DNA from: a virus
IMG/VR virus record: IMGVR_UViG_3300017774_005745
Location: 96,001-160,000 of that record
DNA length: 64,000 nucleotides
Strand: one strand, 5' to 3'
This document shows positions 13,501 through 64,000 of this stretch, in pieces. How positions within the stretch are numbered: the first letter of the stretch is position 1; the number at the start of each line of letters is the position of its first letter. The position numbers and the translations under genes were made by a program. The notes under the pieces are model-generated. The model was given only the letters and a program-made list of their open reading frames with translations, searched no databases and was not told where the DNA came from.

Positions 13501-14408
13501 TTGAAGTTACTAAACTCATTGTTCGCTCCTTCACTCTCGACTACCTGGACCTCTTCTGGGAGATCTCTCCAGTTGCAGGACCGTCCGTAGAGAACAAGCC
13601 CCACGAAATCTACGACTACGATTTCTACATCCTTCGTTCTGAAGCTCCGATGGGTCCCTTTGAGCAAATCGGAGGCCCATTCAGAGACACTTATTCGTTC
13701 AGAGATTCGCGTGTGAATCTCATGCATAAGTGGCGCACGATGTACTACAAGATTCGAATCATTCACAGGCCTACTGGAGAGGTCTACGAAACTCCGTCTA
13801 CGAATAGTCAGGACCCAGAGCCTGACCTTATTGCGAATGAAGTCAATAGACAGGAAGACGTCCTCTTTCGTGAGTTCATTGGAAGACGCTCCTGGTTGTT
13901 TCCAGTACGCACCTTTGGCCCCGTCTGTACTTGCATCGATCGAGTTCTCGGAAGACGTACTCGCTCAAACCACTCTCTGTGCTTTGGTACCGGGTGGCTT
14001 GGTGGGTATATGCATCCAGTTCAGATATTCATTCAACTCGACCCCAACAGCAAGCAAACCAACCTCAACTCTCTCCAAGAGCAACAGCCAAGCAACACTA
14101 TTGCTCGAATGATCTCATTCCCTCCTGTATCTCCCAGAGACGTCATCGTCGAATCAGAGAATAAGAGATGGAGAGTCGTGTCTGTTACAACGACTCAGCG
14201 TCTCAGGTCAGTCCTCCATCAAGAGATATCTCTTCATGAGATTCCAAGAGGGGACATTGAGTATGACCTCCCGGTAAACATCGATTCTAGAACCCACGAG
14301 CCGTCTGCTGTGCGAAACTTTACGAATCCTCAAAATGTGGAGAAGCCAGGTGACTACCAGGACATTTTCAGATTCTTCGGACAGGCGAGAGGCACGAACG
14401 GTCGCTAG
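13497..14408 (+). CDS. Putative neck stopper/head-closure protein with a Zn-binding loop
   Basis: CTC-x(12)-HSLCFGTGWLGGY..P resembles the CxC...CxxCxGxG loop of large-myophage neck proteins. Located upstream of the terminator-like and sheath genes. Confidence 0.55.
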   Translation: MIEVTKLIVRSFTLDYLDLFWEISPVAGPSVENKPHEIYDYDFYILRSEAPMGPFEQIGGPFRDTYSFRDSRVNLMHKWRTMYYKIRIIHRPTGEVYETPSTNSQDPEPDLIANEVNRQEDVLFREFIGRRSWLFPVRTFGPVCTCIDRVLGRRTRSNHSLCFGTGWLGGYMHPVQIFIQLDPNSKQTNLNSLQEQQPSNTIARMISFPPVSPRDVIVESENKRWRVVSVTTTQRLRSVLHQEISLHEIPRGDIEYDLPVNIDSRTHEPSAVRNFTNPQNVEKPGDYQDIFRFFGQARGTNGR

Positions 14409-14697
14409 GAACGCATTCCAGGACGAGCTTTTGAAGATTGCCATGTCTGAGGCCCGTAAGAGCAAATTAAAGAACTTTGCTAAATCTACCGCGACTATCG
14501 CAGCCGGTGCTGGTGTTGGGTATGGCTCGGCGATGTTGGCAGAGAAGGCGTTCTTGAAGATGATTGGGAGTAGGTTTAGTACTCTTCCTCAGTCTCAGCA
14601 GAACAAGATTCTCGGAGCGGCTCTTGGTGTCAGCTTGGCCGGTTCATACGTCGCTAGAAACTGGTTAGACAAAGAGAGAGCAAAGGCAAAAGAATGA
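14335..14697 (+). CDS. Small membrane-active protein with the F-x-D-E-L-x-K-I-A motif and two glycine-rich hydrophobic helices (true start uncertain, probably near 14400)
   Basis: NAFQDELLKIA, then ATIAAGAGVGYG and ILGAALGVSLAG. Stop overlaps the next start. Confidence 0.65.
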   Translation: MWRSQVTTRTFSDSSDRREARTVARNAFQDELLKIAMSEARKSKLKNFAKSTATIAAGAGVGYGSAMLAEKAFLKMIGSRFSTLPQSQQNKILGAALGVSLAGSYVARNWLDKERAKAKE

Positions 14698-18500: not shown

Positions 18501-19165
18501 TGCCAGGCTCCAACCCCGCTCGTCTTGATTACAGCCTCGTTGCTGAAGTGGTTGCAGAAGCGAATGCTGGATTCAAGAACCGTCGCCTCTTCTCAGTGTT
18601 CCCAGACACCATCAAGACCACTGTTGCTGGTGTTGAGAAGAGCTTGCCTGGTTACTACGCCTGCGCAGCTATCTCAGGAATGGTGGCGTCTCAGCCGCCA
18701 CAGCAGGGATTCACGAACTTTGGAATCTCTGGCCTGACTGGGGTGGTTGGCACTGAGAAGTTCACCAAGAAGCAGCTCAACACGATGGCAGGTGGCGGAA
18801 CGTACATTCTCATCCAAGACGTACAGGGTGGGCCAGTAACGAGCCGTCATCAGGTCTCCACGGATGGAACGAGCATTGAGACTCGTGAGCTCTCCATCAC
18901 CAAGGTGGTAGACTTCACTGCGAAGTTCCTGCGTGCCTCAATCAGGAAGTTCATTGGTGTTCAGACCATCGATGACCAGTTCCTCGATACCATTGGAACC
19001 ACCATCCAAGGTATCTTGAACTTCCTCGTTGAGACTGGCGTCTTGAATGGTGCTGAGATTAACAACATCCTCCAGGATAGCGACCAGCCAGATACCGTGT
19101 TGGTGGATATCACTCTGGATGTTCCGTACCCAGCAAACTACATCCGTCTCACCCTGGCTGTCTAA
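15512..19165 (+). CDS. Tail sheath protein (1217 aa, enlarged by inserted repeat domains)
   Basis: N-terminal RPGVEV; C-terminal sheath core (LNTMAGGG.YI, ELSITKVVDF, DTVLVDITLDVPYPANYIRLTL). RBS AAGGAG. Confidence 0.9.
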   Translation: MAELIRPGVEVIQSFRTASPSFVRPTLVPCVVGPAFEVLNVLNSDGTINSKAKLGAYDQIGRTVTQSGFPDPRGNVDELDIIESSIRPFTLAGGSLSELLMDPGEAFLATSHTASKAAIETAVFNGVTGLAIVGKVVVIALDQPVAAATTKDVTITFTGTGLNLTSAEAAAQINAALGQDVATVVGSAPNDKVRITTKKAGAASSITVRAGGSANTLLQIGFSGGSAANEERVEGSGYRAQDDNNNNTTSPWIEFYRGAYLLNGVDTVFVAKAGLINIETAAFVSAKAAAITFGSTGTVPLIAGDYFLADGVKVKSAEIMKVELGRFRLGTINTTLSTADSNGRYTSKVYDAVEVETLFDANPLAPQYVYFKATGLDATVLAPVAATLTGTTLGTAATSGIVTSGVISVPAALAGLTIEYVSTIAGVETTGTFTFTGGPFANAAAIAAAVGTNIPGVTATDSTGALRLTTTTTGRLNAINVKATGTANAALNFSTSVDTVGTGTDVEFTDIPANLLTVSQVVPTLSLTGTSIVIEVSTDSGATWPVTRTHAFVGEHASLVALAANMQADAGFAGTVLAVSVSGLEISIKSVATGQNIAIRVGAASTALGAGKLQYTSLQQDSGEEELNGQTLRVKFDKNPRIYEVTFSSNSLDLAISDLNTAVGAVVASKAGAGLDTLKLTSPLAGSASEVLVLAGAAATAFGLSTSATAGSGRPFPDAYLNSVNNLVIGSQILRDQVTGYPLDPLTNLSDLYIQYKGLRKDVSAVAQIAGVLRIPDQATLTAVLDPLTEENPLGLALFMCLINAPGLEVKGLGVDEISAAAPEGTEAAYARAASMLESEEVYALAPLTQNEVVHSIFGTHVVAISAPEQGGERIVFINKAMPVRKNPTVAASGTKANSTATSNQMLLDVNPAAGLVAAGKNPALPFTAADGVYMEFEVSNELRRYNVSSVSGSLANFRTTFASGENTDGFFSTTALTTTVINASWSLKVRGVSITVPGSNPARLDYSLVAEVVAEANAGFKNRRLFSVFPDTIKTTVAGVEKSLPGYYACAAISGMVASQPPQQGFTNFGISGLTGVVGTEKFTKKQLNTMAGGGTYILIQDVQGGPVTSRHQVSTDGTSIETRELSITKVVDFTAKFLRASIRKFIGVQTIDDQFLDTIGTTIQGILNFLVETGVLNGAEINNILQDSDQPDTVLVDITLDVPYPANYIRLTLAV

Positions 19166-45647: not shown

Positions 45648-45893
45648 TTAGAGGGGCCCTCCTGGCGTCTCCTTTCCTTCTTGAGAGCGCGTAGCAGAGC
45701 CAATGGGGTGGTAAGCTTCATCTTTGTTAGTAAGCGTGGAAGACGACCCAAGCTCTTTTCCAGAAGTGAACTTCTTGTCTTTTCGAACGACCTTCGGACC
45801 GTAGAGTGCCTTGTATTGCTTCTCTGAGAAGGCAGTCTGTTCTGCAATCTTTACGAGCTCATCGGCGAAGGCAGCAAAGGTCGTTCGGAGCAT
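45648..45893 (-). CDS. 81 aa basic protein with the N-terminal F-x-D-E-L-x-K-I-A motif
   Basis: MLRTTFAAFADELVKIA... Confidence 0.75.
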   Translation of the reverse strand: MLRTTFAAFADELVKIAEQTAFSEKQYKALYGPKVVRKDKKFTSGKELGSSSTLTNKDEAYHPIGSATRSQEGKETPGGPL

Positions 45894-52433: not shown

Positions 52434-52730
52434 ATGGAAATCGCCTACGTCGGAGATGAGTACGTCGCTTGGGTACCGTTCTTTGAGAAGCGTCTGAGTC
52501 TGCTCCCAAAGCAGAGTGGGCTGCTCTTTTACTCGGTCTTCTGGAGTCCCAGCTTCAACGGTAAGTGCCAGGTACTCAACTTTGTCCTCGGGTTGCAGAA
52601 AGACGCCGGGCTGACGAGAGACGTTGGGGAGGCGCTTATTCAGCAAGTCCTGAAGGATGCTCCCATCAATATGGTTCCATTTACTCCGAACGTAACGGTG
52701 TACGTGGGGAGCCCTGGACCCGCCCTGTGA
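52434..52730 (+). CDS. Hypothetical protein, divergent from the accessory block
   Basis: 98 aa; GTGA-coupled to the HTH gene. Confidence 0.65.
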   Translation: MEIAYVGDEYVAWVPFFEKRLSLLPKQSGLLFYSVFWSPSFNGKCQVLNFVLGLQKDAGLTRDVGEALIQQVLKDAPINMVPFTPNVTVYVGSPGPAL

Positions 52731-52921
52731 CCAAAGTACTCAAGAACCTCATCCGACTGCGGTCGAAGCGTATGACGCAGTCAGAGCTCGCCAGGAAGCT
52801 CGGGGTGTCTAGACAGCAGGTCTACAACATCGAGAGCGGTAGACAGGGCCACCCATCCATTCAAACCATTGAAAGGTATGCTAAAGCGGTAGGTGCTAAA
52901 ATTCTTGTGGTTCCTCGTTGA
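52727..52921 (+). CDS. XRE/Cro-type helix-turn-helix regulator (64 aa)
   Basis: MTQSELARKLGVSRQQVYNIESG...PSIQTIERYAKAVG. Confidence 0.92.
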   Translation: MTKVLKNLIRLRSKRMTQSELARKLGVSRQQVYNIESGRQGHPSIQTIERYAKAVGAKILVVPR

Positions 52922-52946
52922 CAAGTCCCCTCGTAGTACATACTGT
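52918..52946 (+). promoter_or_regulatory. Sigma70-type promoter
   Basis: TTGACA-N17-TACTGT; ATG 8 nt downstream with no SD (possibly leaderless). Confidence 0.65.
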
Positions 52947-52954
52947 GTCTGTAC

Positions 52955-53290
52955 ATGCCCACCGACGATAGAAACCCGCTCCTCATTCCAAGCGCCAAAG
53001 AACCCGTTCGTCAAAGGGGCTGTCCCGTCTGTAACTCCGATCGATTTGTCGGGAGAAATCTCGGAGGGATGATAAAGTGGACCTGCCACGCATGCGGGAA
53101 CATCTGGCACGGCGGCCTTCCACAGCAGCCAGAGGATCCGACGGTCCCAAAGGCTCCCGTCGACCCAATGGATAAGCCCGTCATGGACTTCGTGAAAGAC
53201 AAACAAGGAAATGCGGTAGAGGTTCGCAGGAGAGTGAATCTTACTCCTGAGTTTAAGAAGGGTCTTCCAATTCCAGAAGGAGAAGAATAA
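52955..53290 (+). CDS. Zn-ribbon protein
   Basis: CPVC...WTCHACG. Confidence 0.75.
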   Translation: MPTDDRNPLLIPSAKEPVRQRGCPVCNSDRFVGRNLGGMIKWTCHACGNIWHGGLPQQPEDPTVPKAPVDPMDKPVMDFVKDKQGNAVEVRRRVNLTPEFKKGLPIPEGEE

Positions 53291-54135
53291 TGACGGACGA
53301 GAAGAGAGAGACTGTTGTATTCGGTTCAAACGAAATCAGCGCAGAGCAGAAGAGTGCGTACCAGGCGAAGATTGCAGCAGCGAAGTCTGGTATCAATTCT
53401 CTGAAGGGTGTCGACCCCGTCGGAGGAGAGAAGACCTCGATGCCCGACTTCGCTAAACTTCGCGAAGCCAACTCGGCGAAGAGGTCAAACTCTCCATGGG
53501 AAGAGGGAGTCAATCCCCGTCCTCCTGGTTCTCCTATCCTGAGCCCTCATACTCAGCAGCAGCTCCAGCAGATTGCAGCAACTGCCCCTGCAGAGGCTCC
53601 GAAGAAGGAAGAGCCTGCTCCTGAGAAGGAAGAGGTGAATGTCTTTGATGCGCTCGACTTTGATGGGATGAAGAAGAACGAAGCAGAGCGTCTGCTCGAC
53701 AATAAGAAGAGACGCGAAGACATCGAGTCACGCTGTGAGCCGATGAAGTTCGAAGACCTCCTCTACAAGAATGAAGTTCGCCAACGCGTGCCTATTCTCG
53801 AAGGCAAGTTCGAGCCCCTCTTCAGGTCTTTGACTCCCTCTGAGTCTCTCTTCGTCAAGAAGTTCATTGCGGAAGAGCAGTCTGTCTCTGACCAATACTT
53901 GATGGAGAAGTACAGCCTCTGTCTTCTCACGGCAGCTCTGGTCGACATCAACAACAAGCCGCTCCCAGACCATCTGAACGCAGACGGTGACGTCGACAAG
54001 ACCCTCTTCCAGAAGAAGCTCAAGGAAGTGATGAAGAAGTCTGGCTACATCATCGCCGACTTGTCGCTGAACTACCAGTGGTTCGACATTCGCGTGAGGA
54101 AGCTCATTTCGCTCGACGGCGTAAAAAATGGCTAG
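53290..54135 (+). CDS. Putative tail assembly chaperone (gpG-like)
   Basis: Ends VKNG* over a slippery A-AAA-AAT heptamer with an overlapping -1 ORF; acidic/helical. Confidence 0.65.
   Translation: MTDEKRETVVFGSNEISAEQKSAYQAKIAAAKSGINSLKGVDPVGGEKTSMPDFAKLREANSAKRSNSPWEEGVNPRPPGSPILSPHTQQQLQQIAATAPAEAPKKEEPAPEKEEVNVFDALDFDGMKKNEAERLLDNKKRREDIESRCEPMKFEDLLYKNEVRQRVPILEGKFEPLFRSLTPSESLFVKKFIAEEQSVSDQYLMEKYSLCLLTAALVDINNKPLPDHLNADGDVDKTLFQKKLKEVMKKSGYIIADLSLNYQWFDIRVRKLISLDGVKNG
54123..54129 (+). other. Programmed -1 ribosomal frameshift site (A AAA AAT)
   Basis: X-XXY-YYZ heptamer in the correct frame. The -1 frame is open to 54563 and lacks its own RBS. Confidence 0.7.
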
Positions 54136-54563
54136 AGTCCGCAGAGGGTTGGGTAAAGGCTAACCTCCTCTACGACTTCGCTCTTAGTTCAGGTCGCCTT
54201 CCCTCTCCGGACTCCATCAGAGAAGCACTGTTCATCTCAGTTTGGTGGAGACGACAGGAAATAGAAGCATCAAAGCTAAGAGTCCTTGCCCAAGGCCTTG
54301 CAGCTATCTCAGACGCAGGTAATCACCAGGTCATCTCTGAAGCGTACAAAGCAGCCATCGAGTCACTCTTTCCTCACACAGCCAAAGCAGCAGAGCCGAA
54401 AGACAGAGCGTTGCTCGACAAGATGGAGAAGGAAGTCAAACAAGGTCCTCTGTTCTTTGCGCCCATCTCGATGTCTTCAGCAAAGGCCTCAATCAAGAAG
54501 ATGAACGTTCCAGACGACTTCAAAAAGAAGCTCAACGAGAAGTCAAAGAAGAGAAATAAATGA
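54123..54563 (+). CDS. Frameshift extension (gpT-like) of the tail assembly chaperone
   Basis: -1 frame KKWLESAEGWVKANLLYDF...; no credible independent start. Confidence 0.6.
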   Translation, partial: KKWLESAEGWVKANLLYDFALSSGRLPSPDSIREALFISVWWRRQEIEASKLRVLAQGLAAISDAGNHQVISEAYKAAIESLFPHTAKAAEPKDRALLDKMEKEVKQGPLFFAPISMSSAKASIKKMNVPDDFKKKLNEKSKKRNK

Positions 54564-54922
54564 ACCTTCAACTAAAGAGTTTCTCACAGGATGTTGACCT
54601 CGCCGAACCGGACAAGATTCTGTACTACCTTGTCTTCCAGACTGAGTCCGGGAACGCGATTCGTCTTCCTGTGCAGAAAGAGACCACTGAAGAGCTAATC
54701 CGATTGGTCTACAAGAAGAAGATTGCTGCTGCAGAGGAACCGTCTCCAGAGCCTGAGGCAGTTCCCGAGGAACCTCGCGAAGAGACGGATGAGGAGTATG
54801 ACGACGACATGGCGTTCGATGAGAATGGCGACCCCATCGAAGCTGCGAGCGTCTTCCAGGACGAGGCCCCTTACGAGGAGCAGGAAACTCCAGAATCAGA
54901 GGAAGAGGTTCCTTCTCTATGA
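54560..54922 (+). CDS. Acidic hypothetical protein
   Basis: E/D-rich C-terminal half. Confidence 0.75.
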   Translation: MNLQLKSFSQDVDLAEPDKILYYLVFQTESGNAIRLPVQKETTEELIRLVYKKKIAAAEEPSPEPEAVPEEPREETDEEYDDDMAFDENGDPIEAASVFQDEAPYEEQETPESEEEVPSL

Positions 54923-55368
54923 TGATTCGGTCACTCTGTAACTCCTGCATGCAGCCATTTGAAATCTCAGTAGAGGTAGCTGAGGTTTCTTTGGTGAAGG
55001 AGATTACGGATGACGCGGGCCTGTTCTGTCCATGCCCAAGGCTTTGCGGCGGGAAGATTAACCTCGTAGGCGACGCAACCATCGAGGAGATGTCCAAAGA
55101 TAGACGCCTCAAAGACCCGATGCGTATCTCTGGACGAGAGTTGTACCGTGCCGTAAATGGGTTAGGTCTTCCAGATGAGTTTCCGAACTCTACAGAAGTT
55201 ATCTCATCTTTCATTCAGGGCGGAGTTGAAGAAGTAGACATCGAGGAGTTTCAGGGAAAGTTCTTCATACACGAACTGAAACTCAAGAACGGAAGCGTAC
55301 TTCATTTAGGCGCTGGTCTGAAAGGCGCTCAGGTTTTGAAGATTACCCGAGGTTCCCATGGCAGATGA
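54919..55368 (+). CDS. Zn-binding hypothetical protein
   Basis: CNSC...CPCPRLC. Confidence 0.75.
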   Translation: MMIRSLCNSCMQPFEISVEVAEVSLVKEITDDAGLFCPCPRLCGGKINLVGDATIEEMSKDRRLKDPMRISGRELYRAVNGLGLPDEFPNSTEVISSFIQGGVEEVDIEEFQGKFFIHELKLKNGSVLHLGAGLKGAQVLKITRGSHGR

Positions 55369-55702
55369 CGTTCTTGCAGAGGCTCTTGCTCGCGTAGAGT
55401 TCAAGGTAGACCTCTTGATGAAGCACCTGCAGGTCAAGACGCCGCTGCCGATGGCATTCGGTGGGCACACCTGCCCGGCATGCAACACCCCCGTAGAGTA
55501 TCAAATCGACGTCATGAAACAGGTCGTTACTCGAAAGTGTGCCTGCACTACAGGCAAAATCGTATTCAGCATCTCCTTCCCACAGCCTGGAGAATCAAAT
55601 GGCGGAAAAGAAAACAGCACAGGGTCTCCCAACATCGAGGGAGCTCTCAAAGACTTCGAATACATCCTTGGAAATGACAACAAGAAAGGTAAAGGCGGCT
55701 AA
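55358..55702 (+). CDS. Zn-ribbon hypothetical protein
   Basis: CPAC...CAC. Confidence 0.65.
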   Translation: MADDVLAEALARVEFKVDLLMKHLQVKTPLPMAFGGHTCPACNTPVEYQIDVMKQVVTRKCACTTGKIVFSISFPQPGESNGGKENSTGSPNIEGALKDFEYILGNDNKKGKGG

Positions 55703-55868
55703 GTTCGTCAATGTTGCCATGGTTCAATGGATTGATGACGATGGGGTTGAGCACGTGAGTCTCGCAGTGGTTGGAGACAACAACGTCCAACTCATCAACC
55801 CCCAGGTCGTTGGAATGGCGGGCTCGTGGTTGAAGACGGGTATCTTCGAGAAACTGAAGGGTGAGTAA
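55599..55868 (+). CDS. Hypothetical protein
   Basis: GGAG RBS before the ATG at 55599. Confidence 0.65.
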   Translation: MAEKKTAQGLPTSRELSKTSNTSLEMTTRKVKAAKFVNVAMVQWIDDDGVEHVSLAVVGDNNVQLINPQVVGMAGSWLKTGIFEKLKGE

Positions 55869-56246
55869 ATGGACATCACGAAACTGAAGCCTCGCCGAGA
55901 TTGGACCCTCGTTCTTGCTGACCCGAGAAGAGTAGCAACGCAGGGCGGTATCTTCCTCCCCGGTCATGAGACCGGCGTTGAGAAGGTCACAGAAGGTGCT
56001 GGCCTCATCATCGCCGTCGGCCCCGGCGAGAAGAACGCAGGTCTCAAGATTGAGAAGGGTGACCGTATCCTCTATCGAGCGTTTCTGAAGCACGCGAATC
56101 GGATGGAGACGGACGAGGTATGGGAGAATGGGGAAGCAAAGTGCTACTTCCTGATGAACTCTGATGATATACTCGGAGTGATGGCTCCAGGAGTTGACGT
56201 TGGTGTATTTTCCGGACGCCCGGAAAATCGAACGGAAGGAAGATAA
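55869..56246 (+). CDS. groES: GroES-like co-chaperonin
   Basis: LKPRRD.TLV, TQGGIFLP mobile loop, IIAVGPG, KGDRILY, DDILGV. Confidence 0.92.
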   Translation: MDITKLKPRRDWTLVLADPRRVATQGGIFLPGHETGVEKVTEGAGLIIAVGPGEKNAGLKIEKGDRILYRAFLKHANRMETDEVWENGEAKCYFLMNSDDILGVMAPGVDVGVFSGRPENRTEGR

Positions 56247-56248
56247 CC

Positions 56249-56692
56249 ATGGCTTGGATTGTGCTCGACCTCGATAACACTCTTGTCCAGAAGCAGCAGG
56301 ACCCAAACACCGGCATGGATGTGACTTCCCTCGTCGATGGCTCTGTAGAGGCAATGCAGCAACTCGCCTCGGAAGGTCATCGACTCACTGTCCACACTTC
56401 GCGCTTCGCTCCAATGCCGGACGCACGAAGGAACCAACTCAGAGAAGAGATTCACGCTGAGCTTACTGGCTTTGGATTTCCTGAGATGGAAGTCTGGACT
56501 GGAACAACCAAGCCCGACGCTGACATCTTCATTGGCGGCAATAACGTCTCATTCGAAGGGGATTGGGGAATGGCTCTCGCCCATACTCAGTCCATGCTCG
56601 AAGCCCGTGGCTTGGTCGAGATTCCGATGGACGACGGGATGATGCCTGAAGAAGGGTATCCCGAAGAAGTTCCTCAGGAGGAGATTCAATGA
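56249..56692 (+). CDS. HAD-superfamily fold protein (motif IV degenerate)
   Basis: VLDLDNTL motif I, HTSR motif II, TKP motif III; ADIFIGGN where IDD is expected. Confidence 0.75.
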   Translation: MAWIVLDLDNTLVQKQQDPNTGMDVTSLVDGSVEAMQQLASEGHRLTVHTSRFAPMPDARRNQLREEIHAELTGFGFPEMEVWTGTTKPDADIFIGGNNVSFEGDWGMALAHTQSMLEARGLVEIPMDDGMMPEEGYPEEVPQEEIQ

Positions 56693-57249
56693 ACTCGACG
56701 ATGATGAACCCCAAGGCGTGGGTTGAGGTTGTTCCTGATTACATCAACAACGAAGGCCAGCGGTCCGCAGCGAACTACCTCAAGGCAGCTCAGCAATTCG
56801 AAGTCGAGACGAACCCTCGCTACGTGAAGGGTCACGACAATGACCCGAAGAACGGAGAAGAGACGTACTGCAACATCTACCTCTGGGATGTGACCAAGGC
56901 GATGGGTGTTGAAGTGCCTCACTGGGTTGACCTCGCCACTGGGGTGGAAGTCCCTATGGGGAAGGGAAAGGAGCTGAGCGCCAATGGCGTCGTTGACTGG
57001 TTCACTACTCACGGAATGGCGCACCAGTGGATGCAATGCTCGAAGATGAAAGCAATGCTCCGTGCTTCCATTGGGTATCCTTCTGTCGTTCTTTGGAAGA
57101 ATCCAGGCGCTATCGGACACGTGGCAATGGTTCTCCCAGGAGTGGACTTCACTCACATTGCTCAGGCAGGCAGCGTGAACTTCTTTGACGGAGACTTGAA
57201 GAGAGGCTTTGGGAGTGCCGGTCCCTTGCTCTTCTTCACGCACGACTAA
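56689..57249 (+). CDS. CHAP/NlpC-P60-like Cys-His amidase (candidate peptidoglycan hydrolase)
   Basis: TYCNIY.WD (Cys), ELSAN...W, IGHVAMV (His), IAQAG. Confidence 0.65.
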   Translation: MNSTMMNPKAWVEVVPDYINNEGQRSAANYLKAAQQFEVETNPRYVKGHDNDPKNGEETYCNIYLWDVTKAMGVEVPHWVDLATGVEVPMGKGKELSANGVVDWFTTHGMAHQWMQCSKMKAMLRASIGYPSVVLWKNPGAIGHVAMVLPGVDFTHIAQAGSVNFFDGDLKRGFGSAGPLLFFTHD

Positions 57250-57392
57250 TGAACGAGAGAGCGCGTCTGAACGTCAGAATCCCCGCTGACCTTCTTGAGT
57301 GGGCAAAGAAGTACGCCAAGAAAAAGAATACGACCGTCACTCAACTACTCATTGATTTCTTGACGAGAGAACGAGAGGCGTCCAATGGCTAA
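57249..57392 (+). CDS. 47 aa ribbon-helix-helix protein
   Basis: RLNVRIPADLLEWAKKYAKKKNTTVTQLLIDFL; TAATG-coupled; below the track cutoff. Confidence 0.8.
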   Translation: MNERARLNVRIPADLLEWAKKYAKKKNTTVTQLLIDFLTREREASNG

Positions 57393-57936
57393 CCCTCCCT
57401 CCATTGGAGACTCGAAGACGAAGTTTCAACGTATTCGACAGATGTACGACTTGCCGACGGATAGAGAGTCAATCGTAAAGAGAGTCCAGTCCATCCTGGA
57501 ACTGGGAGGGGTTCAGAAACTCTCCATCGAACTCGGCCATCCGATTCAAGTTGAGCGGTTGATAAAGCCAGGAGCAGAGACACCTCAAGAGCTTCCAGAA
57601 GAGTCTGAGTTTGCCCGTGCGATGAGCTCTGAGATTACGGACCTTCCTGTCGATGGGTTGGATCCCTTCACGTATCTCTTCAGTGCGTTTCAGACTATCT
57701 CCGCCAAGCAGATGAGAGCAGTTGTCTTCCTGGTCGCGGATACGAATGTCGTCAAGAAGTGGTTGTCCTTGCCGAGCATGGTCGTTCTGACGGAGTTGTT
57801 CGGTGTTCGAGTACACGTAGAATCACAAGTCCCACGTGATGTAATCCTCATGGTCGCAGAAGAGTTAGACACAGACTCGCCGAGTACCTTGTCAGTTCGA
57901 CTCGTAATGGATGATGTAAAAGGAAAGAAGAAATGA
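57385..57936 (+). CDS. Hypothetical protein
   Basis: Co-oriented, coupled. Confidence 0.75.
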   Translation: MANPPSIGDSKTKFQRIRQMYDLPTDRESIVKRVQSILELGGVQKLSIELGHPIQVERLIKPGAETPQELPEESEFARAMSSEITDLPVDGLDPFTYLFSAFQTISAKQMRAVVFLVADTNVVKKWLSLPSMVVLTELFGVRVHVESQVPRDVILMVAEELDTDSPSTLSVRLVMDDVKGKKK

Positions 57937-58466
57937 AACCAATCGTCGAGAAGATTCTAAAGAGCGGGCTCGTTGATAAGGGAATGGTCGAGCTTCTGGA
58001 GAAGTGGGGAAACCTCCCGAACGGTTCATCAGACTTGGTCGACAACGATGCTCTGGTGAATGCGACCCGAGTTCAGCTTCAGAAGATGGCTCAGGAGTTC
58101 GGAGACGCAGTATCAGACCTTCAGTTGATTCGAGAGACTCAGCTGGACCTCGACCGTCTCCGCTGGCCTACGAAGGTCACGATTCAGGAGAAGAACGTCT
58201 TCGACATCCCTGCAGTAATGGACCGAATGGGTCGTCTCTACTTTCGAATTCAAGACGTGAGAGAGGACTGGTTTGTTCCTGGTTACCTCATCACTCGAAA
58301 GCAATTCAAGCCAGAAGAGGGCCTTGAGATGCTCGTTTGGGAGCGGATCCTCGAATCAACCGTACTGTTTACTGGTGAGAGCAAGATCGCAGTTCAAGTG
58401 ACCGTTGCCCCGTCGGAGTTGGTTGAGACTTCCTTGCCTAAGGAGAACGACAATGGCTCAGTGTGA
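57933..58466 (+). CDS. Hypothetical protein
   Basis: ATGA-coupled. Confidence 0.75.
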   Translation: MKPIVEKILKSGLVDKGMVELLEKWGNLPNGSSDLVDNDALVNATRVQLQKMAQEFGDAVSDLQLIRETQLDLDRLRWPTKVTIQEKNVFDIPAVMDRMGRLYFRIQDVREDWFVPGYLITRKQFKPEEGLEMLVWERILESTVLFTGESKIAVQVTVAPSELVETSLPKENDNGSV

Positions 58467-58770
58467 GAACTGTGGCTCCAAGGGCCATGACATGCGGGAC
58501 ATGGCCTCTGACGCCGAGAAGAAGATGTTCATCGGCCCTTGCTGTGTGAGTGCGAACAGCGCTCAGATGTTCGAGAAGTCAGAACTGCACTATGGATTGG
58601 AGATTTCGTCTCACATGGGCGTTCGGGCGTATGCTACGTACAACGGACTTTCCGTTGAGTTCAAGAAGAGCAAAGAGGAGATTCAAACATGGCTCCAAGA
58701 GACGAAAGAGGAAGTCCAGCCGAATCCAGTGGAGAGCCAGACGAGCAGCGAGAGCCAGATCCGGAATTGA
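58453..58770 (+). CDS. Hypothetical protein
   Basis: AAGGAG RBS; CENC...CC. Confidence 0.7.
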   Translation: MAQCENCGSKGHDMRDMASDAEKKMFIGPCCVSANSAQMFEKSELHYGLEISSHMGVRAYATYNGLSVEFKKSKEEIQTWLQETKEEVQPNPVESQTSSESQIRN

Positions 58771-58928
58771 TATCTCCAGAAGACCTCTCCTCTGCCCCGA
58801 AGGACAGCCTCCTTCAAGAGCTTCTGGGATTCAACACTTCAGACATCGAGACAAACTCCCCAACATGGGCGTCGGTATTTCGAAACGAGCAAAAAGATGA
58901 ACCTGAGCCAGACGGAAGTTCGAGCTGA
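58689..58928 (+). CDS. Acidic hypothetical protein (uncertain)
   Basis: GAGGAG RBS; overlaps its neighbours. Confidence 0.45.
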   Translation: MAPRDERGSPAESSGEPDEQREPDPELISPEDLSSAPKDSLLQELLGFNTSDIETNSPTWASVFRNEQKDEPEPDGSSS

Positions 58929-59187
58929 GATTGCGGAGAAGTCTCGCGACCTGGAGGTGTTCGTAGAGGCGCGGAGACTGATTCGACAGAGAGTAATCGA
59001 AGTCTCGGATTCAGAGAGTAGCCTTACTCCGTTGGTACGTTGGTCCGGAACAGATGCAGTGCTTGGTACGCTCGACCTGTGCATCCACTCAATGGAACGC
59101 ACCATCGAAGAGTTGAAGGGTATTCTATCGCGTCTTGACTCCGAGACCCCTTTCTTGAGGCTTGTTGGGAATGAAGAAAAAAACTGA
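58897..59187 (+). CDS. Helical hypothetical protein
   Basis: Co-oriented. Confidence 0.7.
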   Translation: MNLSQTEVRAEIAEKSRDLEVFVEARRLIRQRVIEVSDSESSLTPLVRWSGTDAVLGTLDLCIHSMERTIEELKGILSRLDSETPFLRLVGNEEKN

Positions 59188-59710
59188 AGAAGAAGTCGCA
59201 GAGGCACTCCGACAGTCTCAGATGGTGGAGCCAGTGTCTTCTGATAGGACCTGGTCTGGGTGGGCCTTCTTGTGCAGGCTACTGCCCGGCCAGGAGAAGA
59301 ACTGGCTGAAGACCGTTGAGAACATTCTCCGTTGGGCATCGAAGAGAGACCATACGGAGCTCTTCATTGCTCGACAGTACCTTCTCAAGAACGACAAGGT
59401 CGTGTTCGGTTGGTTCGTAGAGCTGAAAGTCAAGAACGCGAAGGAATTGAAGGAAGCGTCAGACGGCTTCTGCGCTCTACTGAAGCGTTCGGAGAAGGTC
59501 GAGGTTCCGAAGAGGAAGCCATCAGCGAATAGCCCTCGACTGACTGTAGTGAGCTCGTCCAAGGACTCAAAAGGTAATGTGGTCGAAGAAGTAACGATGC
59601 CTTTGCCTAACATGAGCGGTAAAGATATGAACGTTCCTTCCAAGCCTATCTGGAACGAGAATCTCGGAAGATTCGTTGGCGGACAAAAAGGTGCGAAAGG
59701 TATTTCATGA
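59171..59710 (+). CDS. Hypothetical protein
   Basis: GAGG RBS before the ATG at 59171. Confidence 0.7.
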   Translation: MKKKTEEEVAEALRQSQMVEPVSSDRTWSGWAFLCRLLPGQEKNWLKTVENILRWASKRDHTELFIARQYLLKNDKVVFGWFVELKVKNAKELKEASDGFCALLKRSEKVEVPKRKPSANSPRLTVVSSSKDSKGNVVEEVTMPLPNMSGKDMNVPSKPIWNENLGRFVGGQKGAKGIS

Positions 59711-60372
59711 AGCCGACAAGCTTTGACCCATCTATCTCGGAGTCTCACGTTGACTTCGACAAGCTCTCAGACCCTCGCGTCCGTGAGGCTACTGAACGAG
59801 CCCGTAAGACGCAGGATTCGTCCCCAGATGCGCTTGAGAAACGTCTCGGATCCACTCCAGAGATTCGAGCGAAGTACAAGATTGAGGTGATGTTCGACCA
59901 GCATCGAACCTCTGTCGGTCCCAACCTCCTGGGTCTCCAGATTTGGGAGAGCGGGAAGAAGTTCCATGGAGGAGGAGATGAGCTTCTCTATTGGTGCATG
60001 GACACAGAGTCCAACCAAGGGTGCAAGCAGCCCATTCCTGGGAACTTCGTCAAGGGACCTGTAGGAGTCTGTCCCTCGTGCAACAAGGGAATCCTGATGG
60101 AGCGTGCCGCCCACATTCGAGTCCTACGAGTGACTACAAAGGTCCTTGCAGATGAGATTGTGAACGTGTTCCGCTCTCTCAACTCTAACGCAGACATCTA
60201 TCTCAAGTACGCGAAAACGGATGCCCACTACATGGCAATGGCGCGTTCAAAGGGTCCAGATGTAGCGAGGCGTTTGAAGGGTATGCACATCTATCCTCTT
60301 AAGAATATCTTGAAGGATACGTCTTCCGGTGCAGACCTTTCTAACCGTTTCTACGCCTTCTTGACTTCGTGA
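59707..60372 (+). CDS. Conserved hypothetical protein with a Zn ribbon
   Basis: WC...GC...CPSC; ADIYLKY...D. Confidence 0.75.
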   Translation: MKPTSFDPSISESHVDFDKLSDPRVREATERARKTQDSSPDALEKRLGSTPEIRAKYKIEVMFDQHRTSVGPNLLGLQIWESGKKFHGGGDELLYWCMDTESNQGCKQPIPGNFVKGPVGVCPSCNKGILMERAAHIRVLRVTTKVLADEIVNVFRSLNSNADIYLKYAKTDAHYMAMARSKGPDVARRLKGMHIYPLKNILKDTSSGADLSNRFYAFLTS

Positions 60373-60376
60373 CGCC

Positions 60377-61153
60377 ATGCTTCAACCGCTACTCCCATCT
60401 TTCCTCAGCGAGCTTGAGAAGATTGCGGCTGACGGAGATTTGGTTCTGTATCATGGGACCAAGCCCTCCCTCATTCCCAAAATTCTGAAGGAGGGTCTAA
60501 ATCCAGAGATGATGGGCACTGGATGGGAAGGAGCCCCTACCGAAAGGGAAGGTAAGGCAACGTCTCTATCCTCTCTTAGGCACCACGCTGCTGCCTACTC
60601 TGGTCTCGGAGCAAGGTCGGATGGGACAGGCTTCTTGAGCAGCCTCTTCGGTAAGCATCCTGTGTTGGAGATTAGAATTCCGAAGAACTCCGTGCTTCTG
60701 AAAACAATTAAGCAACAGATAGCAGGAGATGGGAGAGGTGGCTTCGACGAATGGCACTCGTCGAAGGTGATACCACCCAGATTCATTAAGAAGCTGTCTT
60801 CGGTGCAAGAGCGTCCCGAGTTCCCGAAGTCTGTCCGTGAGAGATTCTCGATAACCAGTTGGGGTGACTTCGAAGAAGCACTCAAGCGTCCTGCATTTCA
60901 GAGGAAGGCTCTCGCCTCTACCGAAGACCCAAGGCTGAAGTCGTACATCGAGAATCTCTCCCTCCTGCACAATTCAAAACAGACGAAAGCCACCATCGGC
61001 AGTTTCGCGAATCCCGCGAAGGAGTTTGAAATCAAGAAACTCCGGAACGGTCGATTCGGGTGCTCGTGTAACGACTGGAGATACGTTCGGTCGGTTAACG
61101 GGACAGACTGCAAGCACATCAAGAGATACAAAGAACACGTAGGAGCAACGTGA
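60377..61153 (+). CDS. ADP-ribosyltransferase-fold protein fused to a SWIM Zn finger, with the N-terminal F-x-S-E-L-x-K-I-A motif
   Basis: LYHGT....IPKILKEGL, TSLS...AAAY, PVLEIRIP, FDEW...VIPPRFI (H-Y-E/Tpt1-like ART core); CSCNDW...CKHI (SWIM). Confidence 0.75.
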   Translation: MLQPLLPSFLSELEKIAADGDLVLYHGTKPSLIPKILKEGLNPEMMGTGWEGAPTEREGKATSLSSLRHHAAAYSGLGARSDGTGFLSSLFGKHPVLEIRIPKNSVLLKTIKQQIAGDGRGGFDEWHSSKVIPPRFIKKLSSVQERPEFPKSVRERFSITSWGDFEEALKRPAFQRKALASTEDPRLKSYIENLSLLHNSKQTKATIGSFANPAKEFEIKKLRNGRFGCSCNDWRYVRSVNGTDCKHIKRYKEHVGAT

Positions 61154-61154
61154 C

Positions 61155-61742
61155 ATGGCTATTCCTAAGGAAGAGGAACAGGCCAACGCGAACAAGAAGA
61201 GGATAGACGACCTGACGTCTGTTCTTTTAGGGCTCGACCGTGCTTCGATTACAGAGCAGGCGTCCAAAGTCGCCAAGCACATTCAGAAGCCATTTCAGAT
61301 TGTAGTGTGCGGGGCCGCTGGAGCTTCCAAGACTACTTTCTCCAATGCTCTCAGTTCTGTCTTAGATATTCCTTCTTTTGATTTCGATGAGTACATCCAA
61401 GGCGGATGGACACAAGATAAAGCGAAGTACCAGGGTAGGATTCTCGACGGTCTCGACTCTCTCTGGGATGACCTGTCGAAGGCTTGGATTGTTGAGCATG
61501 TAGAAGCTTGCTCTCCTACCTTTCTACGTTCTCTAGACCCTAAATGGGCGATTCACCTACGTCCGGAAAAAGAACAACTGAAAGCAGTTGCGCAGACCCG
61601 AGACTTGGTATCGAATGAGTCAGACGGAGTACGTGCGCAACGAGCGATATCAACTTCCAGAACTTCTCTTACCCACTTCGAGTCCGCCCCAGGTAACGTA
61701 GTTGCTTCCGGTACTGGTTGGGTTCTAAAGGAACTCCGATGA
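61155..61742 (+). CDS. P-loop NMP/small-molecule kinase-like protein
   Basis: IVVCGAAGASKTT Walker A variant, then FDFDEY and WIVEHV. Confidence 0.7.
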   Translation: MAIPKEEEQANANKKRIDDLTSVLLGLDRASITEQASKVAKHIQKPFQIVVCGAAGASKTTFSNALSSVLDIPSFDFDEYIQGGWTQDKAKYQGRILDGLDSLWDDLSKAWIVEHVEACSPTFLRSLDPKWAIHLRPEKEQLKAVAQTRDLVSNESDGVRAQRAISTSRTSLTHFESAPGNVVASGTGWVLKELR

Positions 61743-62626
61743 ACTCTGAAACCTTTCTATCCTTCTCAGACGAGCTTCAGAAGATTGCTGCTCGTCGAGG
61801 GCTAAAAGAAATCAGAAAAGCTGTCGCAGGAGGTAACATCGAGAGAGCAAGCTCTCTTGCAAAGACTCCTGGAGTGCTGAAGCCAACAGCCCACGGTTCT
61901 GAGATTAAAGACCTGGGCCACGGCGGGGAGGGACTGGCGACTATGGTCGCCCACCCTCAACACGGCGTTGCGGTAAGAAAAATCTACAATCCAAATGCCG
62001 TTACTGATAAGCTCGTTGCGCGTAAAGAGCGAGCAGCGGAGCTTACGAAGAACAATCCGAACGTCGCTAAAACATACAGCGCCTCTAACACTCCAGGAGG
62101 TAGCCGTGCCCATATGATGGAGTACGTGCATGGCTCCGAAGTAAAGCCATCTCCTCAGAACTACCAAGCAGTAAAGAACACCCGTCAGTCTCTTCAGAAA
62201 GACCTCAAACGAGGTGGAATGGTAGCTCAAGATGTTCGACCGCAGAACATGATTCAAACTCCCTCCGGTCAAGCAAAGCTCGTAGATTACATCCCAGGAA
62301 AGACTGGTGACTTCGAGTCTGGGAACACCCGTAATCGAGTAAACCAGCAACTCAAGGCGCAGGGACAGTCTACTCTTCCAAAGAGTGCAATCTTAGGCAC
62401 TAACCAAGCTCCAGAGATGCTGAAGGGAGTTTCGTCCCACATGACTTCATCTGGACTTCTCAAAGGACAGGCATTTAGAGGAGCAACTCCTGGACACGCA
62501 ATGCCGCGTGGCAATACCGCTGCGACGAAGGTCACTCCAATGCCCTCTGCCGCCCCTCCAGTCCCTCCTGCACCAGCAGCAAATTTAAATGCTCCAACAA
62601 GGGCGGTAAGAGCTCCTCGAATCTAA
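61739..62626 (+). CDS. Hanks-type (Ser/Thr) protein kinase-like protein with the N-terminal F-x-D-E-L-x-K-I-A motif
   Basis: LGHGGEG Gly-loop, VAVRK, HMMEYVHG hinge, QDVRPQN catalytic loop, KLVDY; Pro/Ala tail. Confidence 0.8.
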   Translation: MNSETFLSFSDELQKIAARRGLKEIRKAVAGGNIERASSLAKTPGVLKPTAHGSEIKDLGHGGEGLATMVAHPQHGVAVRKIYNPNAVTDKLVARKERAAELTKNNPNVAKTYSASNTPGGSRAHMMEYVHGSEVKPSPQNYQAVKNTRQSLQKDLKRGGMVAQDVRPQNMIQTPSGQAKLVDYIPGKTGDFESGNTRNRVNQQLKAQGQSTLPKSAILGTNQAPEMLKGVSSHMTSSGLLKGQAFRGATPGHAMPRGNTAATKVTPMPSAAPPVPPAPAANLNAPTRAVRAPRI

Positions 62627-62759
62627 AAACACCCACATCCATCATCCCATGGTTGGTCCTGTCACCGATGTGGGTGGTCACTTCTTCGTAGAGGTGCGCA
62701 CGTAGTTAGAAGCAACATTCTTCTACTTCCTTTTACCTTTCTTTCTCGGAAATTAGTGC

Positions 62760-63029
62760 ATGAAAACTTTCAAAGAAACACTCGAAGAAGTAAGACGCCT
62801 CAAAGGCAGAAGGATTGTCTTGCGTCATCTCGCCGACCTTTTGGAGAGCGAGTTCCTCGCCGCTTCAGATGAAGCACTACCGAAACATCTCCTACTGTCC
62901 GAAGATAAGGTTCCAGTCAGTGCTGATGTATTTGACAGCGTAGTTGCAGACCTGTTGAGCGAAATAAAAGACATTGAAGACAAAGTTCATGATATCGATC
63001 AACTCACTCTAACGCCCCCTAAGGGGTAA
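62760..63029 (+). CDS. Hypothetical protein
   Basis: Co-oriented, helical. Confidence 0.7.
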   Translation: MKTFKETLEEVRRLKGRRIVLRHLADLLESEFLAASDEALPKHLLLSEDKVPVSADVFDSVVADLLSEIKDIEDKVHDIDQLTLTPPKG

Positions 63030-63042
63030 CACAGGATACACC

Positions 63043-63582
63043 ATGTCAGATTCACGAGCACTCGGGGTTGTCTCACTGAAGAACAATATCGACGCGAAGA
63101 GACAGGCCATTCGTGAAGAGAAGAAGCGCCGCCTGATGAACAAGGGAATTAGCGAGGAGCGCGCTGAGGAGATGGTCTCCATGCAGGAGCATGACAACGT
63201 CTCGGACGAGAAGAAGATTACACGTCTTGAGAACCTCTTCATCCAGACGTTCCAGGGCCTCCAGAGAGACATCCTTGCCCTCCGCCACAATGACGGCGTC
63301 ATTGCAGATGCGATGGACATCAACCTCAAGGCAATGTCCAAGAGCCTGGAGAAGGCAGGAGTCAGCAAGGAGCAGCAGGGCGAGATTATCAAGGAAGTAG
63401 AGATGGAGCTGCGTGAAGAGCAGCGGAAGAAGCTTGAGGCCCAAGAGATGGCTCGAAAGATGTCAGAAGACCAGCTTGAGAAGGAGCGTATGGACGCTCT
63501 TGCGAAGGAAGATAAGGGTCTCCAGACTTCCGAGCCAGAGGGTTCTGAGATTCCGACGGAAGCTTCTGTCTTCGGGGGCTAA
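63043..63582 (+). CDS. Coiled-coil E/K-rich hypothetical protein
   Basis: AGGA RBS. Confidence 0.8.
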   Translation: MSDSRALGVVSLKNNIDAKRQAIREEKKRRLMNKGISEERAEEMVSMQEHDNVSDEKKITRLENLFIQTFQGLQRDILALRHNDGVIADAMDINLKAMSKSLEKAGVSKEQQGEIIKEVEMELREEQRKKLEAQEMARKMSEDQLEKERMDALAKEDKGLQTSEPEGSEIPTEASVFGG

Positions 63583-63584
63583 AA

Positions 63585-63616
63585 AAGAAGGGCCTCCAAA
63601 AGAGGCCCCCTTTCTT
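63585..63616. terminator. Bidirectional terminator between convergent genes
   Basis: AAGAAGGGCCTC/GAGGCCCCCTTTCTT imperfect stem, A-run on one side. Confidence 0.7.
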
Positions 63617-64000
63617 AATCTACTGTAACCGTTCTCTTGTACTCAGTGAGATTGACCATCGCTTCCTGGCCCTTCTCTTCTGCAATCTCGTCGATAGCGA
63701 ACTCGCTCAACGAGGCGAGAACTTCCTTGAGGCCCTCTTTGGCGGCCTCAGTCGAGTTGATGCCAGCCGCACTCTTCTCGAAGTCAATCTTTCCATCACT
63801 GAGGTAGGCGTACTTCTGTTTCAAGTCGTCCAGTACCTTGGTGATGTCTGATTTTCCGAAGTCCAGTGCCTTGAACGTTTCAAAGGCATCAAACAGCGGC
63901 TTGAGATTCTTCGGGTTGAGCTTCCCCTGCTTCTTCAGGAGCTCATTGGCGTGCGCAGCAGCCTCGCCAAGCGCTTTGTGCATCAACACGGCAGTCTCTT
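63615..64000 (-). CDS. C-terminal part of a helical hypothetical protein (continues beyond the window)
   Basis: Frame open to the window end; stop at 63615. Confidence 0.7.
   Translation of the reverse strand, partial: ETAVLMHKALGEAAAHANELLKKQGKLNPKNLKPLFDAFETFKALDFGKSDITKVLDDLKQKYAYLSDGKIDFEKSAAGINSTEAAKEGLKEVLASLSEFAIDEIAEEKGQEAMVNLTEYKRTVTVD

Follow-up and report, generated by a model that had tools for sequence, protein, structure and literature searches.

A predicted minimal Hanks-type kinase from a 196,807-bp virus genome bears an N-terminal tag that may direct capsid loading

We analysed a stretch of 64,000 nucleotides (hereafter the window; bases 96001-160000) of the 196,807-bp virus record IMGVR_UViG_3300017774_005745, which is rated complete and has direct terminal repeats. 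The open reading frame (ORF) at window positions 61739-62626 encodes a protein that combines a strongly reduced protein-kinase fold with a short N-terminal peptide, and this peptide recurs on unrelated proteins of the same genome. The kinase belongs to a large and divergent family whose catalytic residues are invariant, and the peptide is linked by gene position and by a related sequence motif to the genes of the viral head. In our preferred reading, the peptide is a tag through which the kinase is loaded into the capsid and delivered into the cell together with the DNA. We assign a probability of about 0.45 to the whole chain, up to a packaged, injected and active kinase; its parts are graded separately below.

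Fold and active site of the kinase

The five motifs from which the initial annotation had recognised a kinase (LGHGGEG, VAVRK, MEYVHG, DVRPQN and LVDY) were all found in the ORF, and the substitutions that it named were read correctly: Q stands for the HRD histidine, R167 for the catalytic-loop Lys and D-Y-I for DFG. A search of a 5.8-billion-protein set recovered 39 homologues of the kinase, and an exhaustive search recovered 576 representative clusters (clustered at 50% identity) at E ≤ 0.001. Mean column identity in an alignment of 37 family sequences is just 26%, with G60, G62, E64, G65, K81, E128, D165, N170, D183 and P186 invariant. The alphaC glutamate E97, which sits in model helix 90-102, is kept in 33 of the 37 sequences and replaced by Asp in one. 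D183 is followed by [YFH]-x-P in place of F-G, and the residues preceding D165 vary (AQ, AA, GK, GH, LA), so that neither the His nor the Arg of HRD is kept. The Pfam Pkinase model (PF00069) matched the ORF with an E value of 0.0077 and 16.1 bits, under its gathering cut-off of 31.7, and matched five of the 37 family members at E ≤ 0.1 (best 4.9e-4). A profile of the alignment compared with solved structures matched PknA (E 4.8e-6) and PknB (about 1e-4), and the sequences found by this profile were protein kinases without exception (PknA/B, ROCK, Chk1, StkP).

Structure comparisons gave the same picture. The AlphaFold2 model made from the alignment had a predicted local distance difference test score (pLDDT) of 85.9 and a predicted template modelling score (pTM) of 0.76. 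Foldseek, by which a kinase fold had been proposed to be sought, returned at least 500 Protein Data Bank (PDB) matches at E ≤ 0.001, kinases throughout among the matches listed (PknB, 1.4e-7). VIA-align, which is independent of Foldseek, aligned the model with PknE (Z 12.8, root mean square deviation 2.5 over 134 residues), Rad53 (Z 12.5), Rio2 (Z 11.6) and NleH1 (Z 10.3); its top 50 rows were kinase-fold proteins. Only kinases were matched in a viral structure library, none of them close. We regard the protein-kinase fold of the ORF as virtually certain. The ORF and nine neighbours had no family in PHROGs (for the kinase, none at E ≤ 0.01), tblastn of the kinase against 50,697 INPHARED phage records gave no match, and a scan of bacterial genome contigs for kinase relatives found none and so gave no clue to a host or a prophage. 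From its sequence and model, the protein is classified as a minimal Hanks-type kinase, in a family without a Pfam or PHROGs annotation of its own.

The model begins with two helices (residues 3-30 and 34-42), continues with an N-lobe of five strands and alphaC (54-128), alphaE (139-158) and the catalytic and metal-binding strands (161-188), and closes with short helices at 195-207 and 238-247 before disorder sets in from about residue 250. D183 and a conserved G-[ED]-F are only about eight residues apart, which leaves essentially no activation loop. The activation segment, the APE motif and the alphaF-alphaI block are absent, and structural alignments mostly end between model residues 190 and 225. 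The short C-lobe and the Pro/Ala tail described in the initial annotation are thus both borne out by the model, in which the tail is disordered; the C-terminal 46 residues include 11 Pro, 11 Ala and zero acidic residues. As modelled, the layout is that of the Rio kinases (Rio1/Rio2) and of the injected effector kinase NleH1, that is, an N-lobe and the catalytic half of the C-lobe without activation loop or alphaF-alphaI. The alignment covers 134 of the 160 residues of NleH1. NleH, like OspG, is a kinase injected into a target cell. The resemblance to NleH1 and Rio is at the level of the fold only (13-15% identity), the delivery machinery is different, and the family described here has N-terminal helices and a tail of its own. 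The best sequence and structure matches, PknA, PknB and PknE, share with it the Gly loop, the Lys-Glu pair, the D-x-[KR]-P-x-N loop and the metal-binding Asp. It differs from them in being non-RD, in having no activation segment with APE and no alphaF-alphaI, and in standing without receptor or regulatory domains.

The absent HRD His and Arg, the altered DFG and the truncated C-lobe could also mark a pseudokinase or a structural internal virion protein whose fold serves for binding, such as a basic core protein associated with DNA; the pI (isoelectric point) of 10.4 and the disordered tail are indeed like those of internal head proteins. We consider this very improbable, as the residues for ATP binding and phosphotransfer are all invariant in a family of such low identity, and the minimal kinases Rio and NleH, which have the same losses, are described as active in the matched PDB entries. 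Rio and NleH are known as active enzymes in the literature as well. The invariant catalytic set points to an active enzyme, and we predict that the kinase is likely to be catalytically active. Whether packaged or not, it represents a sizeable kinase family (about 576 clusters) that Pfam and PHROG models have missed, and one that illustrates how far the fold can be reduced with all catalytic residues retained.

The N-terminal tag and its link to the head

The peptide that the initial annotation called a tag is indeed common to unrelated proteins of this genome. The pattern F-x-D-E-L-x-K-I-A is N-terminal in eight ORFs, where chance alone would give 0.2, and its F is residue 9 in three of the eight. 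The core E-L-x-K-I-[AS] occurred seven times in the ORF set, whereas shuffled sequences gave 0.18 and the reversed pattern gave 0. The copies use differing synonymous codons, and this variation at third positions indicates that selection acts on the peptide; for the same reason, a conserved DNA or mRNA element was rejected. A Sec, Tat or membrane signal was likewise rejected, the tag being too short and too acidic for one. Nine tagged ORFs are encoded by the related phage G001, several of them orthologous to tagged ORFs of this genome, and about five by G002; the DNA pattern of the tag core had eight forward matches in G001 versus 0 for the control.

Scanning IMG/VR for D-E-L-E-K-I-A identified at least 39 distinct complete ORFs, spread over many contigs, with the tag ≤25 residues from the start (loci L102-L215, e.g. 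L121:766-2925 and L179:7155-7916). Their products include a 720-aa (amino acid) SNF2 helicase, a GNAT protein, C92/NlpC-P60 and zinc peptidases, a DnaJ protein and a glyoxalase-fold protein; the majority are small basic proteins, and a Gly/Ala-spaced motif is present in roughly half. Conservation among these ORFs ends abruptly after the Ala of the tag. Five tag-bearing records were checked, and all five carry the capsid-protein family of this genome, at 36-64% identity; a longer tag pattern had 18 matches on them versus 0 for the control. That the tag is unchanged while the capsid proteins have diverged to this extent suggests a conserved partner. The tag string, sought literally in 8.4 million papers, had no occurrence. 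We hold with high confidence that the tag is a genuine signal common to these proteins.

Several lines of evidence connect this signal with the head. Of the eight tagged genes, five are in + strand blocks with head genes and large ORFs without Pfam match, which we take to be virion blocks, and one of the tagged genes is located between the genes of the maturation protease (genome 87390-88970; phrog_18299, 8.7e-6) and the capsid protein (phrog_2522, 5.5e-11). In four of five other records checked that carry the capsid family, a tag match is found about 1-5 kb from the capsid gene. Outside the tags, [EQ]-K-I-[AS] is present 11 times in the proteome, and eight of these occurrences fall in four consecutive genes that hold 1.7% of its residues and encode a 355-aa protein, a 120-aa protein, the capsid protein and a 133-aa protein. 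The capsid protein has its sites at residues 15 and 24, within the first 27 residues and ahead of the region that aligns with the capsid family, and the [EQ]-K-[IV]-[AS] positions of the head genes are retained in G001. On the basis of these sequences, we propose [EQ]-K-[IV]-[AS] as a candidate prohead-protease site; the sharp stop of conservation after the Ala appears to resemble maturation-protease sites as well. Five kinase relatives read tag-SWIM-tag-kinase, with tags at the module boundaries of the fusion, as processing sites would be. Across all lineages of the kinase family, conservation sets in exactly at AARRG, directly after the K-I of the tag, and the polyvalent forms are untagged. 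In metagenomes, a threshold of E ≤ 1e-5 collects 2,134 members of the capsid-protein family, and many of their contigs measure about 195-210 kb.

Two known systems bear on what the tag may do. In phage T4, the Alt ADP-ribosyltransferase and the internal proteins are loaded by means of N-terminal peptides that the prohead protease gp21 cleaves (PMC9026906). As with the cargo of the T4 capsid-targeting sequence (CTS; IPI-III and Alt), a short N-terminal peptide is attached here to unrelated, mostly basic proteins, among them an ADP-ribosyltransferase (ART)-like enzyme, a short motif is repeated at the N-terminus of the capsid protein and in adjacent head genes, and the cargo set differs between related phages. 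It differs from T4 in that the peptide is unrelated, that we infer the cleavage site and the packaging, that the cargo includes a kinase, an SNF2 helicase, a GNAT protein and peptidases, and that the tag is also found inside natural fusion proteins.

The second system is that of the phage polyvalent proteins, in which a 2017 study (Iyer, Burroughs, Anand, de Souza, Aravind) predicted injected truncated kinases; this kinase clade has lost its C-terminal subdomain, kept its active site and carries a Glu before strand 2 (PMC5512222). Compared with this published description of Kinase-PolyVal (PF18762), our family has likewise lost the C-terminal subdomain with its ATP-binding and phosphotransfer residues retained, and its invariant E64 stands just before strand 65-72. 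It also exists in stand-alone and multidomain forms, and among the fusion partners SNF2 helicase and 2H phosphoesterase are typical polyvalent modules: a relative of 1,682 aa (P0228) joins LigD_N (3'-phosphoesterase), SNF2, Helicase_C and the kinase, three relatives (P0183, P0188, P0036) join an Acb1-like 2H phosphoesterase to the kinase, and one is fused with DUF5661 and DUF6321. The contigs of P0228 and P0183 are short and their gene contexts uninformative. In the last N-lobe strand, where Kinase-PolyVal has a Gln, position 125 is His here and Gln in two sequences; Kinase-PolyVal has an insert between His and Asp, whereas no conserved His or insert precedes D165. Even at E ≤ 10 the PF18762 model matched nothing in the genome, and it was absent from the Pfam matches of the 37 family members, for which reason we file the kinase as a separate family that works like the polyvalent clade. 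Both are predicted to be injected early, the difference being that the kinase described here is a separate small tagged protein and not a domain of a giant polypeptide. The close match between the set of tagged proteins and the polyvalent domain list counts in favour of capsid loading and injection.

In the mechanism that we propose, the tag would dock the kinase onto the assembling prohead core, like the T4 CTS, and would end in a prohead-protease cleavage site. The kinase, a basic protein, would stay associated with the DNA inside the capsid and follow it into the cell, where, having no regulatory activation loop, it could start to phosphorylate host proteins immediately, ahead of all phage gene expression. 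The chances that the tag means capsid loading are about even, and delivery in the virion is the best-supported reading at similarly balanced odds. A wider reading is put forward tentatively: the 10-residue code [AS]-F-x-D-E-L-x-K-I-A may load a changeable arsenal of single-domain effectors, the split equivalent of a polyvalent protein, and may double as a prohead-protease site where it stands at the module boundaries of fusions. The arsenal would include the minimal kinase, the ART-like enzyme, the SNF2 helicase, a GNAT protein, peptidases and small basic or Gly/Ala-rich proteins. This wider reading covers phages with this capsid-protein family, which have genomes of about 200 kb where complete.

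A number of observations weigh against delivery in the virion. The kinase gene lies outside the presumed structural blocks, in a conserved block without assigned function (about 57.9-63.6 kb), and in distant relatives it stands among genes for thymidylate synthase, a methylase, PARP and rIIB-like proteins. More distant members of the capsid-protein family lack the first of its EKIA sites. In the model, the tag and the following AARRGLKEI run as one confident continuous helix (residues 3-30), so the tag could be partly structural. Other kinase lineages have a different helix at the position of the tag (LWKEAARAG, ALEKFAARRG). A scan of IMG/VR for one such helix, MFPxGFW...LWKE, gave 80 unrelated matches, none in frame, and nothing further in locus L002. 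Several tagged proteins, finally, have Gly/Ala-rich stretches that could span a membrane, and the tag could then address a membrane-proximal site instead, although ejection proteins fit these stretches too.

The gene position, the Gly/Ala-rich stretches and the continuous helix would suit a kinase that is made during infection and acts in the cytoplasm like T7 gp0.7, with a tag for docking to a phage or host hub protein or a chaperone, for a membrane-proximal site or for turnover. T7K (PMC13645617) and JSS1_004 (PMC12345140), the only experimentally studied phage kinases that we found in the literature, are described as acting by expression in the infected cell. We nevertheless judge an unpackaged kinase unlikely, given the concentration of the looser motif in the capsid protein and its neighbours, the presence of one capsid family on every tag-bearing record checked, and the resemblance of the tagged set to the injected polyvalent repertoire; as judged from its sequence, an acidic tag of 9-10 residues is also unlike typical membrane-binding helices or secretion signals.

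Substrate and significance

T7K and JSS1_004 phosphorylate many host proteins and disarm defence (PMC13645617, PMC12345140), and the T7 kinase disarms Retron-Eco9 and DarTG1 in this way (PMC13645617). No sequence relation of our kinase to T7 gp0.7 or JSS1_004 was found (PHROGs; tblastn against INPHARED). T7K is expressed early and not packaged, and the protein described here differs from both T7K and JSS1_004 in having a recognisable Hanks-type core. The analogy with the T7 kinase, together with the Acb1-like fusions, hints at a role in anti-defence or takeover, but host defence or takeover proteins as targets of the kinase are at present a speculative assignment. The kinase is 44-47% identical in a phage whose capsid protein is 84% identical, and such fast change relative to the capsid is a pattern usual for host-interaction proteins.

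The substrate might not be a protein at all. An RNA (2'-OH or ends), a signalling nucleotide or a small molecule could be phosphorylated instead, and the kinase would then form a set for nucleic-acid repair or modification with its P-loop and Tpt1/ART-like neighbours. The model does match the RNA kinase TkArkI (Z 10.5), an aminoglycoside phosphotransferase (Z 11.3) and YihE (Z 10.9), the half of the C-lobe that binds protein substrates is missing, relatives are fused to 2H phosphoesterase and LigD 3'-phosphoesterase domains, one neighbour has weak Tpt1/KptA and PARP leads, and the P-loop ORF overlaps the kinase start. We hold a non-protein substrate to be quite unlikely: only protein kinases are found by the family profile, the top structural matches are protein kinases, and the D-x-R-P-x-N loop resembles the D-L-K-P-x-N of Ser/Thr kinases. 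The supposed partners are also inconstant, the ART-like and P-loop neighbours being missing in locus L001 and the ART-like neighbour in the related phage locus L004. Polyvalent proteins, moreover, combine domains irrespective of pathway (PMC5512222).

That phages inject truncated kinases has already been predicted (PMC5512222); what is new is this family and, above all, the separate tag. Should the tag prove to signal capsid loading, phages would have a second code for addressing cargo besides the CTS of T4, one that is directly testable and can be fused to any protein, and one that is found on other phages with a capsid family of more than 2,000 members in public metagenomes. Hypothetical proteins of such phages would then be readable as an inventory of first-minute effectors. 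We know of no other phage kinase that acts before phage transcription starts; ours would be the first, and would add to recent work in which phage kinases were found to disarm defence systems broadly.

Gene neighbourhood and feature coordinates

The coordinates of the kinase features, the neighbouring genes and further tagged genes are given in Table 1. AAGGA is located 7 nucleotides upstream of the kinase ATG, which overlaps the TGA stop of the upstream P-loop ORF. This ORF contains GAAGASKT and has weak shikimate-kinase and AAA_18 matches; the pair that it forms with the kinase is also present in L004 and is absent in L001. The next gene upstream is called ART-like and not ART, because no homologues of its ART-like part were detectable and its leads are weak (PARP, E 0.029; Tpt1/KptA, E 0.051; template modelling score of 0.54 to the Tpt1 structure). 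A degenerate tag, RFIKKLSSV, lies between its two modules, and five relatives have its SWIM module joined directly to the kinase.

Table 1 Features of the kinase ORF, its surroundings and other tagged or head genes. Positions are those of the window unless marked as genome; residue numbers refer to the kinase
Feature	Position	Strand	Remarks
Kinase ORF	61739..62626	+	295 aa; pI 10.4; start overlaps upstream stop (ATGA)
N-terminal tag FSDELQKIA, residues 9-17	61763..61789	+	at 8 N-termini of the genome
Family-specific N-terminal helices AARRGLKEI..., residues 17-42	61787..61864	+	kept in tagged and untagged relatives
Gly-rich ATP loop G60-x-G62-x-E64-G65 (LGHGGEG, residues 59-65)	61913..61933	+	invariant in alignment
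beta3 lysine K81 (VAVRK, residues 77-81)	61979..61981	+	invariant
MEYVHG, residues 127-132			motif present
Catalytic loop D165-V-R-P-Q-N170	62231..62248	+	D165 and N170 invariant; R167 in at least 90% of sequences
Metal-binding Asp D183 (DFG equivalent, here D-Y-I-P; LVDY, residues 181-184)	62285..62287	+	D183 and P186 invariant
Disordered basic Pro/Ala-rich tail, residues 250-295	62486..62623	+	pLDDT 53-62; composition
P-loop NTPase-like ORF, untagged	61155..61742	+	195 aa; stop overlaps kinase start (ATGA)
Tagged protein with ART-like domain and SWIM zinc finger	60377..61153	+	258 aa; tag 60401-60427
Five conserved genes upstream of kinase	57933-60372	+	two with Cys-rich zinc-ribbon motifs; also in L001 and L004
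Strong two-way terminator-like hairpin between convergent genes	63588..63610	.	closes the + strand block that contains the kinase
Tagged basic protein	45648..45893	-	81 aa; tag 45843-45869
Tagged protein with Gly/Ala-rich stretch	14335..14697	+	120 aa; tag 14416-14442; orthologue L010 in G001
Four head genes with concentrated [EQ]-K-[IV]-[AS]	genome 90229-93854 (L016:8230-11855)		just upstream of the window

The expression signals around the kinase gene give no timing. No sigma-70-like sites were detected in 11.5 kb (window 52500-64000), against 5.8 ± 2.5 in shuffles, a shortfall that means only an absence of host-type promoters. Upstream regions of genes, searched by k-mers for a promoter motif in common, gave nothing usable.

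In two loci of distant relatives of the phage, proteins with the eukaryote-type PARP architecture WGR-PARP_reg-PARP are encoded a few kb from the kinase gene (L002:15-1448 and L003:6697-8133), and a DnaJ protein with a weak Pkinase match is encoded at 13341-14399 of L002. Elsewhere in the window, the + strand ORFs at 5509-10767 (1,752 aa) and 15512-19165 (1,217 aa) have no Pfam match, and the ORF at 3219-4949 has a Laminin_G_3/concanavalin-like domain (1.2e-9); these three are probably tail or fibre proteins.

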